The position numbers and the translations under genes are program-made. A stretch of DNA of 64,000 bases from a virus. Its lineage: Duplodnaviria; Caudoviricetes. The number at the start of each line of letters is the position of its first letter. The stretch's first letter is position 1. The notes beneath the pieces were generated by a model. It made no database searches and had not been told where the DNA came from. It was given only the letters and a program-made list of their open reading frames with translations. Of this stretch, positions 4,268 to 64,000 are shown piece after piece. The stretch covers positions 1 through 64,000 of the IMG/VR virus record IMGVR_UViG_3300021399_000115; one strand, written 5' to 3'.

Positions 4268-6187
4268 TTATTTAATAAGTTCCAAAAATTGTTCCTCAGT
4301 GATAATCGGAATGCCGAGCGATTTCGCCTTTTTATTCTTACTACTGTCGCTGGTGGCATCATTGTTAATTAAATAACTGGTGCTTTTACTAACAGAACCA
4401 ACCACTTTACCGCCGAGATCTTCGATTGTTTTCTGTAGTTCCGCACGATTCTTATAATGATGAACAGAGCCGGTAACAACAAATGTTTTATCAACCAGCG
4501 GATAATTCCCATCCGGCTTATTCATGAAATCATCGCCAATAAACGATACAATGTTGGCGATATCAATCATCTGCATATGGTTCAGCATCCACCACTTATT
4601 AATGTTTCGGCTAAGCACCGGACCGATGCCGGGGATATTTGAGAAATCATACTGGTTGTCACAAGCTTTACTGAACGCATCGAATGTCTTGAAGAATTTT
4701 GCCAGTAGTTTACTCTGACCTTCGCCGATTCCGGGGATTGAAAATGCGGTAATAAAGTGAACTAAGTCGCACTCCTTACTTGACTCGATTGCAGCTAACA
4801 AATTGTCGATTGACTTCTTACCGAAACCGTCAATCTTATAGAGTTCGTTCTTATACAAATGAAGAGAATATACGCTCTCAAACATATTGGTTAAATAACC
4901 GAAGTTAATCAGTTTATCCAGTGTCTGCTCCGAAAGTCCGTCAATATCCATACCCTTTTTCGACACGAATGTAACCCATTTGCCGAGAGTTTTTCCAGGG
5001 CATTCGTCATTGGTACAGTAGAGAACTTCAGATTTATTCTCCTTGATGATACGTGTCGGAGCTCCACAAATTGGACAAAATTCGGGGATTTCAATTTCGC
5101 CGTTGCCGTCATCATCTACTGAATCTACACCCGGGATTACTTGGTGGAGTTTCTTTATATAGCAAGTACAACCGTTAGTAATGCCAAGCTGTTTCATTAT
5201 TGTAATATTATGAAGCGTGGCCTTAGTAATTTCTGAACCATCAATTTCCACTGGCTCAAAATTAGCCACGGGGGTAAGCTGCGCAGTCTTCCCAATTTGC
5301 CAATCCACGGAAATAAGTTTCGTAGGATATGAATCATCTGCGAATTTTAAAGCTTGAGCTCCACGCGGATGATGAGCAGTTGCGCCAAGTGAATTCCTAA
5401 ATTTTTGATCGTCATATTTAATTACAATACCATCAATTGGGAACCCCATATCTTCGGCTGTTTTCTTTAACGTGTCGATTGCATTTTGAATTTGATCTGC
5501 ATTGCTATTAGCGTAAAGATAAGTGGCATCAACAATATCAAATCCCAACGAATAAGCCTTGGCTAAATCTACAAACAGTTCACCTTCGCCGCCTTCAATA
5601 ACATCCCAAGCAAAGAATTTAAGATGACGTTTGGCGGATATTGAACCATCTAGCAAATTAAGCGACCCAGCCGCGAGATTCCTCGGATTCTTATATTTCT
5701 CAGTATCAACAATCTTGGAATTAATTTTCTCAAAATCCGGATAAAGGATAACGCACTCACCGTCAATAACATACTTCCCAGGCTTGTTAATAGTCATCGG
5801 CAGATTCTCAATGGACATAGCATGATGCATAATATCATTACCAACAGTACCGTTACCGCGAGTTTCAAGCCGAGTAAGTTTACCGTCAATGTAGGTAGCC
5901 GAACAAGTCAAGCCGTCCGCTTTCCACATTGCCACGCTATCATATTTAAGGAATGATTTAACCTCGGTAATAGTGTGTATTTTATCCAATGATAACATCG
6001 GATGTTCGTGTTTAATTTTTTCAATAGCGTCAATCGGAGCAGAACCGACGGTCTCTACATAACCAAGCTTTTCTGCTCTGGTAACAAGTCTGTCATACTC
6101 CTGATCGGACATGATTGTCTCGCCGGAACCGTAATATGCTTCTTTAGCTCGGTTAATTAAATCTACCATTTCAGCATATGTAGCCAT
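4268..6187 (-). CDS. ligA: NAD-dependent DNA ligase
   Basis: HPMLSLDK, KADG, NPRNLAAGS, DGIVIK, C4 zinc finger, HhH repeats and C-terminal BRCT (FVVTG...GSVSKST). Confidence 0.97.
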   Translation of the reverse strand: MATYAEMVDLINRAKEAYYGSGETIMSDQEYDRLVTRAEKLGYVETVGSAPIDAIEKIKHEHPMLSLDKIHTITEVKSFLKYDSVAMWKADGLTCSATYIDGKLTRLETRGNGTVGNDIMHHAMSIENLPMTINKPGKYVIDGECVILYPDFEKINSKIVDTEKYKNPRNLAAGSLNLLDGSISAKRHLKFFAWDVIEGGEGELFVDLAKAYSLGFDIVDATYLYANSNADQIQNAIDTLKKTAEDMGFPIDGIVIKYDDQKFRNSLGATAHHPRGAQALKFADDSYPTKLISVDWQIGKTAQLTPVANFEPVEIDGSEITKATLHNITIMKQLGITNGCTCYIKKLHQVIPGVDSVDDDGNGEIEIPEFCPICGAPTRIIKENKSEVLYCTNDECPGKTLGKWVTFVSKKGMDIDGLSEQTLDKLINFGYLTNMFESVYSLHLYKNELYKIDGFGKKSIDNLLAAIESSKECDLVHFITAFSIPGIGEGQSKLLAKFFKTFDAFSKACDNQYDFSNIPGIGPVLSRNINKWWMLNHMQMIDIANIVSFIGDDFMNKPDGNYPLVDKTFVVTGSVHHYKNRAELQKTIEDLGGKVVGSVSKSTSYLINNDATSDSSKNKKAKSLGIPIITEEQFLELIK

Positions 6188-6471: not shown

Positions 6472-7716
6472 TTAGGCGATACTCCTTTCTTCAGTCAAAT
6501 AGTGTTTACTCTTCTCAAGCAGTTTCAACTTCTTATAACTTGCACATGGACTGATCTTTGTGCCATCCAATGTGCGAAGATCAAAATACCCGCTAGTACG
6601 CCTGCCAAAAATGAAACACTCTTGGTTTTCGTACAGCACTTTGTCGAAAAGACGGAACCCTTTGACTAGATATGCTGCTTGGTTGCATTTGCGTTTGCCG
6701 CCTTTTCCGATGGACATTTTATGGATCTTCCGATTGTGGCAACGCACCTTTCTTTGATAGTACAATGTACCATCAGATTTCGCATTTGGATGTCCACTAA
6801 TGCAGCGAGCGTCAATGTAATGTTCCTTCGGCAAATGATTTTTGATTCTCGTATTTTTGGTAATATAGCCATATGTCATCGACACATTGGGATACGTTTC
6901 TTTGAGCTTGTTATAGAACGCCCAGCGCATAATACCCATGAAGGTGGCCTCCCTGAAGGACATACCCCTGCGAATACTTTTTGGCAGTTGTACTGTTCCC
7001 TTGTGATATCCGGTGTGGCAGACCTCACAGAGTGTGATCAAATTATTTGGAGCATTTCCGCCGGTTTTCCGACTCTCAATGTGATGGACATTAAGTACTT
7101 TGTCTTTGGATTTACCTTTACAGCATTGACAGGTATGTCCATCACGGAAGAGTATATACTCTCTAACGTTCCAGAAACCAAGTTGATCGCCTTCCTGATA
7201 TTCTTTCCCACTGATATCTGGGTTCTTGATCTTCTGGATATCAAATGATGCTGTTTCTACAACAATTTTCGTAATTGGCAAAATCTCATGAATTTTATCC
7301 ACTACACGAATATGAGTATCCACCTTATGCTGAACAGAAGGTGCAAGCCAACCTTTTTTCTTAAAGGCTGTCCTGTTGTTGAATTTGGGCTTCCGGTATC
7401 TGATTTTGCGATTTCTTCTTGTACGGCGGCATTCTCTCCGTGTGGAAAGTAGGTCTGTGATATCGTTTCTCAGCCCCACTTCAGCTTCGTAGAACACTTT
7501 GTCCTCAGTGGTAGCTGATACTCCAATATGTTTAAATCCTGCATCCACACCTAGAGTGATATCCTGCGCGTAGGAAGTTGTGTCATATAATAATTTAATG
7601 GTAAACGGACAGCGTCGGACCACAGATGCTTTTCCTTCCTTTAAAAGGATGCGAACCTTAGTGTGGTTCGACGTAGGCATCAATGGATTACCGTCTTTGT
7701 TTAAAACATAGACCAA
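6472..7716 (-). CDS. iscB: IscB RNA-guided endonuclease
   Basis: PLMP, RuvC-I LGVDAG, RRxRR bridge helix, VVE, HNH (CQCC..HHI..NLITLCEVCH), RuvC-III HYIDARCI. TTG start at 7716 follows GAAAGGAG. Confidence 0.95.
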   Translation of the reverse strand: MVYVLNKDGNPLMPTSNHTKVRILLKEGKASVVRRCPFTIKLLYDTTSYAQDITLGVDAGFKHIGVSATTEDKVFYEAEVGLRNDITDLLSTRRECRRTRRNRKIRYRKPKFNNRTAFKKKGWLAPSVQHKVDTHIRVVDKIHEILPITKIVVETASFDIQKIKNPDISGKEYQEGDQLGFWNVREYILFRDGHTCQCCKGKSKDKVLNVHHIESRKTGGNAPNNLITLCEVCHTGYHKGTVQLPKSIRRGMSFREATFMGIMRWAFYNKLKETYPNVSMTYGYITKNTRIKNHLPKEHYIDARCISGHPNAKSDGTLYYQRKVRCHNRKIHKMSIGKGGKRKCNQAAYLVKGFRLFDKVLYENQECFIFGRRTSGYFDLRTLDGTKISPCASYKKLKLLEKSKHYLTEERSIA

Positions 7717-7719
7717 GAT

Positions 7720-7998
7720 TCTCACTCCTTTCAAAAGTAACCCAAACATGGTTAATAACTCTCCCCGAAGGGAGGTAAAATACCTTCGCCAATGTTATAG
7801 GAGGTTTGTATGTCAGCAACACTGCCCCTACCCATCAGGGCTGTTTAATCACTGACCTCAGAGCCGCAGACTAGGTATAACATCCACGGGTGACTATATA
7901 TTCTCCCATAACGTAGTTCTCGAAGAACTTAGGCTAGTCAACAATGGCTTTTTCAAGCCCCCACTTCAAGGCGTTAGCCTAAGTGGTGGGTTATTGAC
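7720..7998 (-). ncRNA. omegaRNA (HEARO-type) scaffold
   Basis: Typical 5' GTCAATAACCC, GTTGACTAGCCTAAG, CTACGTT and AACATTGGCGAAGG segments directly upstream of iscB. Confidence 0.85.
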
Positions 7999-8828
7999 AA
8001 ATTACCTCAATCCCATAAGTTCCAAAAATGTTTGGAAAGTAACTCAAATGCCCGGTCTTTGTATTTATCAACAGAATTGTCGATGTTTAGAATGTTATTG
8101 TTAATAGTGTCAAAACAAGAAATCATTTCGTCCAGTATCATATTCCAACGATGCTCGCTGTCTGGGTCAAGTTCCCCATTATCCAGCATAAACACCGGAT
8201 GACTATGAAAATTATCTCGGAAATACTTCAACATCTGAGGAACAACATTCAGAAACCATGTATCAATGTCGAATGTGTCTTTCTCACACCAACCGTATTT
8301 AATTCGTTGATATGCATATTTAATATTTAATCCAATATCATGAAGCCGTTCAATTGGGTGAAGCAACCTATAACGTAATGGAAATTTGTAACAAAACGGT
8401 GTATATGGTTTATATTTCATTTCTCATCTTCCTCATCAATTCGCAGCGGAAATTTTGTCGCCCTATATGATTTCTTAGTTCCGAAAATATCCATCCATGT
8501 GACAAGCACCAGTATCCAGAAAAACACATAAAAAAGAATTGCCGCGGGAATTGATAATATAAACAATACAATTCCGTAAATCCATCCCAGAACATTCCTT
8601 ACGCTAAAGAAATCAATCCAAAAACGTATCGGCGCTTTTAATAATATATATGTAACTAGGAATCCGATATTATAAATCGCTAATAACACTAACAAAATTT
8701 TAATCCAAGTTACCATCGTTTCCTCCTGTTACGAAAAATTCTTGGGATAATCCATTCATAGCCAAGCCAGACTATCATGATTACATCCCTACAGATATAC
8801 ATCCTTGGCATATTGTGTACCCCCTTCG

Positions 8829-30350: not shown

Positions 30351-30522
30351 TTCTGCGGATGTGGATTTGCACCACATATAGCGCCATTGCAATACAACTC
30401 GTCATTGGTCGTTCTGAGTATGCACCTTATGTATAAGCGTCTACAAATGAAGAGCGTTCTGCCACTCCTTTACCATCCGCCCTGTTGCCCAGATTGTGGA
30501 TGTCTATTCCGCCACCGCAGAA
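30351..30522 (-). ncRNA. Second tRNA-like scaffold RNA with inserts in the D-loop and anticodon region
   Basis: TTCTGCGG TG GCGGAATAG [insert] GTAGACGC [insert] ATGTGG TGCAAAT CCACAT CCGCAGAA; ends homologous to 14891-15072. Confidence 0.7.
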
Positions 30523-62221: not shown

Positions 62222-62648
62222 CTAAATTTCTCAAACAAGGCCGTGTTCCACGAAATTAATTTGCGCATCGTGCGGGGTTGATTAAGCCAAAAACCCGTCT
62301 TATGGCACCTTGCTTAAGATTGCATGTGGCGAGAAAATACCCTCGCCACAAAACCTCACTTTAAGTTATTTCATTTCTGTTTCTGTTAAGTAATATTGCA
62401 ATGCTCGTCTTTCCGAGCCGTCGGGGTTTTGTAACGAAAGTTACGGGATAAAAAGCTGTTTGATCAATCACATAGTTACAAGTACGTACTTCCCAGTCTT
62501 TCCCAGGTGTCACCAGTTTTTGACAGCTATGTCCTTCGCATATTATTCTGTCACGTGCATCAGACATGTGTGGAATATGTCATTTTGCCTTTCTGCTTTC
62601 GCTTATCTTATCCACAATCAGATAAGCCGGAATCCTGGACAACCATGA

Positions 62649-62721
62649 TATCCGCAGGCCGATTCGAACAACCACTTCCCGTCGGCGGACGGGACGTACT
62701 CACCAATTATACGATACGGAT
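62649..62721 (-). tRNA. tRNA-like gene, anticodon not assignable
   Basis: ATCCGTA/TGCGGAT acceptor, D-loop AATTGGTGA, T-loop TTCGAAT; anticodon arm TCCCGTC-CGCC-GACGGGA. Confidence 0.7.
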
Positions 62722-62786
62722 AACCAATTACACATGTGCTTTCACTATTTCGGACAGCTTGTACTTCACCGACCTACTTTAGCTAG

Positions 62787-62879
62787 TGGGAACGGCAAGA
62801 TTTGAACTTGCATCTCTTTTGCGCTAAAGTGTTTTACCATAAGGATTTATTTTTTGGCACCTTATTAAACTACGTTCCC
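62787..62879 (-). tRNA. tRNA-like gene with D-loop insertion and shortened anticodon arm
   Basis: GGGAACG/CGTTCCC acceptor, GTTT/AAAC D-stem with inserted ATAAGG..CCTTAT hairpin, GCAAG-TTCAAAT-CTTGC T-arm. Confidence 0.7.
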
Positions 62880-62883
62880 TTAT

Positions 62884-63250
62884 TATTGCGGCTATATCAG
62901 CCTCGTACAATTCGCTGGGTCAAATAAGCGATACCCATAAACTTTGATCGAGGATTTTATCGAAAATTAATAAATGAATTCCCTAAGCCCTACATAAAAA
63001 GAATTCTAAATTCTAAATCGCCACATCACCAGTGGCATCCACTAAACAATAATCAATGATAACTGAGCGCTTAAGCCAATTTACATTTGATTTCTCATCC
63101 CATCAGCATTGCAATATTGATGCTGCTCATATGAGAAAACACTGTATAATATCATATCGCTTCATCTCGATATTATGATGTTTTAAATGGAGCCGGGATA
63201 ACCCTCCCGGCGAGGGGCTTAAGTTTGCGAATTTCGATATAGTCGCAATA
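62884..63250 (-). ncRNA. Putative 367-nt structured ncRNA with heptad repeats
   Basis: 15-bp closing stem TATTGCGACTATATC/GATATAGCCGCAATA, nested AATTCGC/GCGAATT and AAACTT/AAGTTT pairings, several hairpins. Confidence 0.7.
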
Positions 63251-63263
63251 GATTATTTAATAA

Positions 63264-63897
63264 TTAAAAATCAATTTCTATTGTAGTCAGAGCATTCGAC
63301 ACATTCAGCTTCGTATCAACCTCTGCTTCAAACGCGTCAATTCTGGACTCCAACTCAGCAATTTTCTTCTCAATATCGAGCGGATCGACAATGGCAAATT
63401 CCCTTTGCTTTCTATACGGCGCTGTAAAGGCTTCTATGTCAACTTTGTCAATTTTTTGCTTATTGTCTCCGGAAAGCTGTGTTTCGATCAATCTGTCGCA
63501 CTGAGCGTCCACTTTTGCGTTCTCACGAGCAACGGTGGAAACAGCCGAATCAAACTGCTCTTTCATCGCATAGAGGAATCTTTTGTCATACTCAATCGAA
63601 CTCTTCTTTTCTATAGCAGCTGCGACAGTCATCGTTACTCCGCCGATTTCTACCTTAGTAATTGCGTTAGAATTGACAATTGCACTCTTGAGAGCATCTC
63701 GGTTATCAATCATAGCCGTGATAGAATCAAACGAGGACTGTGCATCATTCTCGTAAGCTTTCCTTTTTCTTGTGACCGATTAAATCCGAATTCTTCTTGG
63801 CTGCTCCGACAAATTCGGCACGACCGATTGCCTTATAAATTTTGTCGTCATAGAGTTTCAGTTCTTTCAATGCTTCTGTTACTGTAATTTTTCTCAT
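63264..63897 (-). CDS. Coiled-coil protein (resembles DIP1984/DUF6847-like family); one-base frameshift near 63760
   Basis: MRKITVTEALKELKLYDDKI... joins ...KEAYENDAQSSFDSITAMIDNRDALKSAIVNSNA... if one A is removed from AAGGAAAGC; C-terminal EVDTKLNVSNALTTIEIDF. Family name is from recall and unverified. Confidence 0.6.
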
Positions 63898-63943
63898 AGT
63901 TAATTCTCCTTTGTTTAATAAATGAATTTACATGATTCCTTAG

Positions 63944-64000
63944 CTGAAGCGGTACGATTCGAACATACATCTTCTCGATTGGCGCCGAGACGTTTTACCA
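63944..64000 (-). tRNA. Partial tRNA/tRNA-like gene (5' end outside the window), irregular anticodon loop
   Basis: TGGTAAAAC G TCTCG-GCGCCAAT-CGAGA AGAT GTATG-TTCGAAT-CGTAC CGCTTCA. Confidence 0.65.

Follow-up and report, generated by a model that had tools for sequence, protein, structure and literature searches.

Three tRNA-shaped genes with non-decoding anticodon arms in the tRNA cluster of a rumen phage

INTRODUCTION

The DNA analyzed in this study, referred to here as the window, comprises bases 1–64,000 of IMG/VR record IMGVR_UViG_3300021399_000115, a rumen phage genome of 132,319 bases with a CheckV completeness of 68%. At its far end, the minus strand carries three elements shaped like transfer RNAs (tRNAs), which we named t1, t2, and t3 and whose anticodon arms do not decode. 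The usual explanations for tRNA genes in phages are codon supply on the one hand and evasion of tRNA-cutting defences on the other, and each of them requires decoding. In our literature search we met no published account of sealed-arm tRNA look-alikes in phages, with the proviso that supplementary files may list such RNAs; a bulk survey lists "tRNA or tRNA-like" candidates (PMC10690425).

Along the minus strand, the locus runs from a tRNA-Leu(UAA)-like gene with a group I intron through tRNA-Met(CAT), t3, a gene of 634 bases, a 385-base spacer, t2, a 65-base spacer, t1, and small open reading frames (ORFs) to thyX. All three elements, the two tRNA genes, and the flanking ORFs share the same orientation. 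The features on which the analysis rests are as follows, with lengths in nucleotides (nt) and base pairs (bp).

62649–62721, minus strand: t1, a 73-nt tRNA-shaped gene most likely derived from tRNA-Gly(UCC); acceptor ATCCGTA/TGCGGAT, D stem GTAT/GTAC, T arm GGTTG-TTCGAAT-CGGCC
62677–62694, minus strand: anticodon arm of t1, TCCCGTC-CGCC-GACGGGA, a perfect 7-bp hairpin with a CGCC loop
62787–62879, minus strand: t2, a 93-nt tRNA-shaped gene; acceptor GGGAACG/CGTTCCC, D stem GTTT/AAAC, T arm GCAAG-TTCAAAT-CTTGC
62816–62829, minus strand: anticodon arm of t2, CTTT-AGCGCA-AAAG, 4 bp closed by AGCGCA
62839–62865, minus strand: D-loop hairpin of t2, 6 bp, ATAAGG and CCTTAT around a 15-nt loop
63264–63897, minus strand: neighbouring gene, a phrog_1491 homologue (PHROG match E 4.7e-63) labelled "tail fiber protein"
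63944–64030, minus strand: t3, 87 nt, of which the 3' 57 nt (63944–64000) lie in the window and 30 bases beyond its end
63973–63990, minus strand: anticodon arm of t3, TCTCG-GCGCCAAT-CGAGA, 5 bp with an 8-nt loop without U33

RESULTS

Detection and shape of the three elements

The existence of three tRNA-like elements on the minus strand, proposed in an earlier sequence-only reading, was borne out by ARAGORN for t1, by Rfam for t2 and t3, and by our own scanner for all three, and the anticodon arms quoted in that reading proved exact to the base. ARAGORN reported 62647–62722 on the minus strand as "tRNA-???" with a two-base anticodon "gc", corresponding to t1, and at its default settings called neither t2 nor t3. 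The Rfam tRNA model (RF00005; gathering score 29 bits) matched t2 over 62787–62879 on the minus strand at 45.8 bits, above the gathering score and with a 26-nt insertion in the D loop, and scored t3 at 22.2 bits when cut at the window end and at 34.9 bits in full (64030 to 63944). t1 had no match to this model at E<=1 and none to the body model R1, a covariance model of the tRNA body trained on ten look-alikes. Our scanner, which requires a T arm, an acceptor, U8, and a D stem, recovered all three elements, with six matches in the real genome versus one in ten shuffled genomes combined. No Rfam family besides tRNA matched at the three sites, and an ARAGORN search of the whole genome found no transfer-messenger RNA (tmRNA).

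Direct reading of the elements revealed intact acceptor, D, and T stems, T loops of the form TTCRAAT in all three, and the elbow bases U8, A14, A15, the GG of the D loop, T54-T55-C56, and A58, with a variable region of 3–4 bases ending in T. All 16 body pairs were intact in t2, as were all 16 in t3. CCA is not encoded; the 3' tails read ATCA, ACTA, and GCTA. The acceptor of t3 contains a G3:U70 pair. None of the elements has a 7-nt anticodon loop, U33, or a readable anticodon. The claim that T arm, GG-containing D loop, and acceptor are kept while a 7-nt loop is missing from every element therefore agrees with direct reading. The earlier remark that one element has a hairpin in its D loop is right for t2; the D loop is in fact enlarged in two elements, to 32 nt in t2 and 22 nt in t3. 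Likewise, CGC is present in all three arms of this genome, but it is not a fixed feature, given the loop CTTCCAC of the t1 counterpart in a close relative and a variant of t3 in a public contig (X3), both described below.

The arm of t1 can alternatively be drawn as 5 bp with an 8-nt loop, scored as a terminator-like hairpin, and has no second copy in the genome. For the whole of t1, the cloverleaf was predicted at -24.3 kcal/mol versus -26.2 kcal/mol for a rod-like minimum, with a T-stem pair probability of 0.2. Thermodynamic z-scores were weak (t1, -1.8; t2, -2.6; t3, 0.0) and were not used as evidence. Two further candidates with a long middle lie elsewhere in the genome on the minus strand, one at 30351–30522 of the window, in which a 7-bp acceptor, a 6-bp T-like arm, and the loop TGCAAAT were recognized by eye, and one at 104328–104444 of the whole genome, a tRNA-body RNA proposed by our scanner; neither was matched by R1.

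Comparison with the close relative

Only one close relative was compared, a 202-kb IMG/VR record (loci L003 and L013) that is collinear with this region and shares 89.4% DNA identity over 2,208 aligned columns. A blastn search for closer relatives among 50,697 phage records gave no match, the sole match to an exact 18-base pattern search was the L003 relative already known, and a metagenome scan yielded 11 loci, none nearer than the relatives already compared. Because the odd arms of t2 and t3 are present in this second phage genome, at about 89% identity, assembly or sequencing error was rejected as their origin.

The three elements differ in what the comparison says about them. At the position of t1, L003 carries a canonical tRNA-Gly(tcc) (6997–7071) with the normal loop CTTCCAC. 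The two sequences differ at 19 of 73 positions, mostly in the anticodon arm and the D loop, and both changed acceptor pairs are still paired, one of them by changes on both sides. Since its counterpart is canonical, the loss of decoding by t1 is recent, and t1 most likely represents a tRNA-Gly(UCC) that was disabled not long ago, its anticodon stem-loop having been turned into a closed hairpin. t2 differs from its L003 orthologue at 7 of 93 positions (92.5% identity versus 90.6% in the spacer). The L003 arm, CTTTT-GCGC-AAAAG, is a perfect 14-bp palindrome, and the D-loop hairpin is present there with its last pair broken. Over its 87 nt, t3 differs from its orthologue by 15 substitutions and 4 inserted bases and has thus diverged faster than its flanks, which are 94.4% and 91.8% identical; five of seven changed stem pairs are still paired, and the two phages share the loop GCGCCAAT together with the bases that close it, the L003 stem being one base longer on each side.

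The sequence-only reading had inferred that selection preserves tRNA shape but not decoding, and had taken canonical 7-nt loops in relatives as the sign of recent decay or sequencing error. This inference held up for t3, with its retained pairs and unchanged 8-nt loop and with non-decoding counterparts at the same place in distant relatives as well; it has weaker support for t2, and it failed for t1, the one element with a canonical loop in L003, whereas t2 and t3 keep their odd arms there.

Public runs were examined as assembled contigs, which cannot show RNA ends, and the base differences considered are those listed. Among the listed differences, one contig of run X3 has T as the second base of the t3 loop (place 1984), and one X3 contig shows insertions and deletions across the t1 arm such as the L003 form would give. 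A contig of run X7 spans t1 with no gaps and 10 differences over 233 bases, a weak hint that the hairpin form of t1 exists in another sample.

L003 also carries features that have no counterpart here. One is an odd tRNA look-alike at 4877–4958 (Rfam, 35.8 bits), whose CGCCC/GGGCG stem carries a loop of 17 nt; another is an HNH-type endonuclease ORF at 7565–8065 accompanied by an extra tRNA-Gln. These extra features mark a tRNA cluster remodelled by mobile genes.

Look-alikes in wider relatives

The protein of the neighbouring gene had 93 homologues at E<=1e-5, of which P0001–P0010 were 77–99% identical. An alignment of 20 such homologues led to 80 viral loci, in which ARAGORN called 178 tRNA genes; therefore, the neighbouring gene commonly lies beside tRNA clusters. 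The body model R1 gave 95 matches at E<=0.01 in 86 sources. Among these, 21 were without a standard ARAGORN call, and they fall in 18 loci that include this genome and its two nearest relatives. The ten-sequence alignment A3, on which the model was built, showed covariation across the body, with 98.1% of cells pairing, 12 of 16 pairs changing on both sides, and none of 500 shuffles equalling it. A tRNA or look-alike ends at most 200 nt upstream of the neighbouring gene in 18 of 79 loci, and 8 of these 18 have a non-decoding look-alike there, so that the placement recurs.

The anticodon arms of these relatives are diverse. Non-decoding arms include CC-GTAA-GG, CCGCA-ATA-TGCGG, and AGCCA-GTGA-TGGTT; others, in Clostridium phages, have a C-rich loop of 16 nt on a 10-bp stem, and still others hold inserts of 48 and about 100 nt. 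A gapped D-arm motif picked out 116 stretches, and reading 80 of them by eye added further sealed arms, including L157 (6 bp closed by TTCG) and L154 (a D-loop hairpin together with the arm GGCGC-CAC-GCGCC). The look-alikes discussed individually are listed below.

L008 1055–1126: sealed-arm element of the distant relative G002, arm AGCCA-GTGA-TGGTT
L047 4774–4863: D-1873-type look-alike
L051 4750–4840: D-1873-type look-alike
L056 4751–4838: D-1873-type look-alike
L058 4750–4838: D-1873-type look-alike

G002, for which loci L004 and L008 were used, is only distantly related, its neighbouring-gene protein being about 50% identical. Over 41 body positions, t2 matches the L003 t3 at 35, the G002 element at 34, the t3 of its own genome at 30, and the best canonical tRNA at 28; the best canonical match of t3 is 29. 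By this small margin, t2 and t3 would be paralogues whose lineage had already lost decoding when these phages diverged, a family relation that rests on about 40 positions of short sequences.

In Clostridium phages of the D-1873 type, the look-alike stands just before a tRNA-Trp and the phrog_1491 homologue. Its arm has a 10-bp stem and a C-rich loop, ACACCTCCCC or CCCTCCCCCC, similar to the anti-Shine-Dalgarno end of 16S rRNA. In GenBank, the entry for phage D-1873 annotates the tRNA-Trp and not the adjoining look-alike. A different case is presented by a tRNA-Asn-like gene, found at L053 6878–6954 with an 8-nt loop, CTGTTAAA, and at L054 6728–6801 with a broken arm; unlike the sealed arms, this pair looks like ordinary tRNA decay.

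Operon context and the neighbouring gene

The end of t3 lies 46 nt from the start codon of the neighbouring gene, with AAAGGAGA between them, and t2 starts 385 nt past the stop codon of that gene. Both elements thus have the placement of t-elements, namely a tRNA-like fold beside a coding region on the same strand. Homologues of the gene were found in 745 phage records, those of T5-like, Bacillus, and Clostridium phages among them, and the product matched no Pfam family above the cut-off. Insertion of a single base into an A-rich run near 63750 (63745–63760) splits the gene here into ORFs at 63745–63897 and 63264–63713, and in L003 it is unbroken, encoding 210 amino acids. The split may reflect a genuine frameshift, programmed +1 shifting, or an error in the homopolymer.

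Apart from the arm of t1 itself, no GC-rich terminator-like site was found on the minus strand here. A promoter scan returned 6 promoter-like sites versus 9.6 expected, which is evidence neither way. Contigs of the RNA-library run X18 were found only at 560–637 and 938–1229 of L002, the locus of this genome, in which 880–1263 equals 62880–63263 of the window; the second contig thus falls inside the 385-base spacer. A spacer of similar size precedes the first downstream tRNA in relatives.

Several other RNA features were recorded. The tRNA-Leu(UAA)-like gene, which has a long variable arm, lies beyond the window on the minus strand (about 64663–65075 of the genome; L002 2663–3075), and its intron of about 330 nt interrupts the anticodon between bases 34 and 35, the position it also has in the tRNA-Leu of cyanobacteria and plastids. 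Rfam's Intron_gpI model scored 33.5 bits here (E 1.4e-5), below its gathering score of 50, and 56 bits in G002 (L004 11814–12026). A full-length HEARO RNA (Rfam RF02033, 154.6 bits) lies at 7775–7998 of the window on the minus strand.

DISCUSSION

RNase P and the 3' tRNA-trimming enzymes recognize a tRNA by its acceptor/T-arm stack and elbow rather than by its anticodon. The parts conserved in t1, t2, and t3 are precisely this stack and elbow, with the anticodon stem kept only as a capped helix; in addition, t3 and t2 bracket a gene, and no GC-rich terminator-like site was found on that strand other than the t1 arm. On these grounds we favour, at about an even chance, the reading that t2 and t3, as members of an older line, and t1 are L-shaped, tRNA-derived processing or stability modules for RNase P and RNase Z in an operon of tRNAs and messenger RNAs (mRNAs). 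Under this proposal, the elements would be transcribed together with the adjoining tRNAs and mRNAs, host RNase P and the enzymes that trim tRNA 3' ends would recognize their acceptor/T-arm stack and elbow, and the resulting cuts would set transcript ends and yield stable small RNAs, to the presumable benefit of the phage. The anticodon arm would then be free for capping or for other sequence. Among the functions offered by the sequence-only reading, processing signals appear to fit the context best, with t3 and t2 flanking a coding region on its own strand. T-box and RelA sensing, also offered there, need an anticodon that pairs with a codon or specifier, which the arms of t1–t3 cannot supply.

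Several observations weigh against processing modules. A canonical tRNA could serve just as well to mark a cut site, so that processing leaves the loss of decoding unexplained, and it likewise leaves unexplained the identical t3 loop and the D-loop hairpins; a D-loop insertion beside G18/G19 could even hinder recognition of the elbow. No tRNA or look-alike lies within 200 nt upstream of the neighbouring gene in 61 of 79 loci. AT-rich hairpins followed by T runs stand between tRNA-Met and t3, which makes a single continuous transcript uncertain, and the X18 contigs do not cover t1, t2, or t3, which does not imply that the RNAs are absent. On its own, t1 slightly prefers the rod over the cloverleaf. 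For t2, both changed body pairs are broken in L003 and the element diverges like its flanks, so the one relative compared lends no apparent support to selection on it.

In an unlikely rival reading, all three elements are defunct tRNA genes that undergo neutral drift in a fluid tRNA cluster and have no function of their own. The working-looking tRNA-Gly at the t1 position of L003 speaks for decay, as do the two broken body pairs and the broken D-loop-hairpin pair of the L003 t2, the frameshift of the neighbouring gene in this genome, and the tRNA content beside that gene, which varies widely among the 80 related loci. Some look-alikes, such as L053 6878–6954, are plain one-base insertions into a normal loop. 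Moreover, template switching within a quasi-palindrome could make the perfect stem of t1 in a few events without selection; this could account for its clustered changes, which could also reflect patchy recombination in a cluster with a homing-type HNH gene (L003 7565–8065) or selection for escape from a nuclease. The decay reading fits t1, and it may extend to t2. It accords poorly with the fully intact body pairs of t2 and t3 in this genome and with the history of t3, which has changed at about one position in five, yet keeps most of its changed pairs paired and its loop untouched. The bodies of t2 and t3 resemble the sealed-arm element of G002, even though the neighbouring protein there is only about 50% identical, and arms capped by GNRA-type tetraloops recur, which would not be expected from random decay.

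In another rival, the elements are decoys or sponges that would engage, without being put to productive use, host factors that bind the tRNA shape, such as anti-phage tRNA nucleases, acceptor-end toxins, RNase P, or the CCA-adding enzyme. Such decoys, which we consider distinctly unlikely, would account for an elbow and acceptor kept while decoding is lost, and the t1 arm has changed far more than its surroundings, as it might if the anticodon loop were under pressure. It is known that phage-encoded tRNAs counteract defences that cut tRNAs (PMC13056530, PMC10264068, PMC11464382, PMC11555353). The defence nucleases described in those papers, however, cut the anticodon arm or loop of particular tRNAs (PMC13056530), and the phage tRNAs that escape them still decode, whereas the loops of t1–t3 mimic the loop of no tRNA. 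Nor was a defence or tRNA-repair gene found to tie in: RtcB, the CCA-adding enzyme, PTH2, and Pth were all without a hit in this 68%-complete record. A cassette with peptidyl-tRNA hydrolase was rejected, PTH2 and Pth being absent from the record.

If instead the working part is the anticodon slot or the D-loop insert, the elements would be tRNA-scaffolded RNAs that act in trans by pairing with an RNA or binding a protein, for example through GC-only loop-loop contacts of t2 (GCGC), t3 (GGCGCC), and t1 (CGCC). GCGC and GGCGCC are indeed self-complementary, CGCC pairs with GGCG, and the t3 loop with its closing bases is the same in two phages whose remaining t3 sequence differs at about one position in five. 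The slot contents of relatives, ranging from 2 bp with GTAA and 5 bp with ATA to the 10-bp stem with its 16-nt C-rich loop and the insert of about 100 nt, differ widely. The loops are tiny, though, and no target was found; the sole other 9-mer complementary to the t3 loop, at 91319 on the minus strand, lies in a stretch without a clear reading and is no more than chance would give on a rough composition-based estimate. GCGC is unremarkable in this genome (145 seen versus 169 expected), one contig of another sample (X3) alters the t3 loop, and the GC-loop motif is absent from the wider look-alike family. On balance, we judge trans action very unlikely. A broader version, which strikes us as quite unlikely, makes the tRNA body a general-purpose chassis in large phages of gut Firmicutes, with exchangeable slot and D-loop parts acting in trans and t1 as a first conversion step. 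The scaffold would be cut out and stabilized by host tRNA enzymes, the parts would be the GC-palindromic loops here, the anti-Shine-Dalgarno-like C-rich loops in Clostridium phages, and the 100-nt insert elsewhere, and the targets would be host or phage RNAs or immune enzymes that recognize tRNAs.

Unusual decoding is close to refuted. In this explanation, the elements would be, for example, four-base readers that rescue the +1 frameshift of the neighbouring gene, and t3 does have an 8-nt loop, t1 can be drawn with one, and reading the gene flanked by t3 and t2 in full takes a +1 shift here. Frameshift-suppressor tRNAs of the +1 type have 8-nt anticodon loops, and t3 resembles them in carrying such a loop on a 5-bp stem. 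It departs from them in lacking U33, which is in no loop of the three elements, and in having no matching four-base codon at the frameshift: TGGC, GGCG, and GCGG are absent from the 38-base stretch where the shift must occur. The loop of t2 has only 4–6 bases, and L003 has the same t3 loop beside an unbroken gene.

Comparison with described systems returns to the favoured processing or stability modules. With canonical tRNAs (RF00005), the elements share the 7-bp acceptor, the D arm with GG, the 5-bp T stem, the TTCRAAT loop, U8, A14, and A15 together with the T closing the variable region, and t2 and t3 score above the gathering threshold; they differ in having no 7-nt loop, U33, or anticodon, in the enlarged D loops of t2 and t3, and in the failure of t1 to match Rfam. 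The closest parallel to the favoured mechanism is that of plant mitochondrial t-elements, non-decoding tRNA-like folds beside mRNA ends. They differ in belonging to an organelle and in that cleavage has been mapped there. t-elements have been proposed to be cleavage signals for RNase Z and/or RNase P (PMC1920247). The engineered "tRNA scaffold" for RNA expression in Escherichia coli (PMC3753655) is alike in that the tRNA body folds, is processed, and stabilizes while its anticodon arm is swapped for other sequence; it is unlike t1–t3 in that their arms are almost free of cargo, with 4–8-nt loops, and larger cargo occurs only in relatives (L059, L008 1394–1507). tmRNA and the YrlA-type Y RNAs share the acceptor/T-arm module and the lack of decoding, although t1–t3 keep an anticodon stem and have no messenger-like or Ro-binding part. 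Natural analogues built on a tRNA body further include the mascRNA of MALAT1, the vtRNAs of gammaherpesvirus 68, and the C4 RNA of P1 and P7.

The nearest described phage analogue is RNA C (species 1 RNA) of phage T4, one of two small stable RNAs that T4 encodes where its tRNA cluster ends; the roles of both are stated to be unknown (PMC3014915). Like RNA C, t1–t3 lie within a tRNA cluster, here with tRNA-Met and the intron-bearing tRNA-Leu, on the same strand as the tRNAs and without an anticodon. The 3' 92 nt of RNA C match the body model at 20.1 bits, with the acceptor CGGAACG/CGTTTCG, the T arm CCGGG-TTCGAAT-CCCGG, and an inner hairpin with a 6-nt loop. RNA C differs in its length of 139 nt, its extra 5' part, and a D stem not found by the model, and RNA D gave no match to the body model. 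The likeness is one of kind, with no sequence relation seen beyond general tRNA likeness.

Standard annotation misses such genes, as illustrated by the default ARAGORN run on t2 and t3 and by the look-alike in the D-1873 record. This phage and its L003 relative provide a natural before-and-after case of a tRNA gene losing decoding, and the small stable RNAs of the T4 tRNA cluster, unexplained for decades (PMC3014915), may be of the same kind. Besides codon supply and escape from tRNA-cutting defences, non-decoding tRNA-shaped genes suggest that phages use the tRNA fold in a third way, as a module for processing, stability, or presentation.

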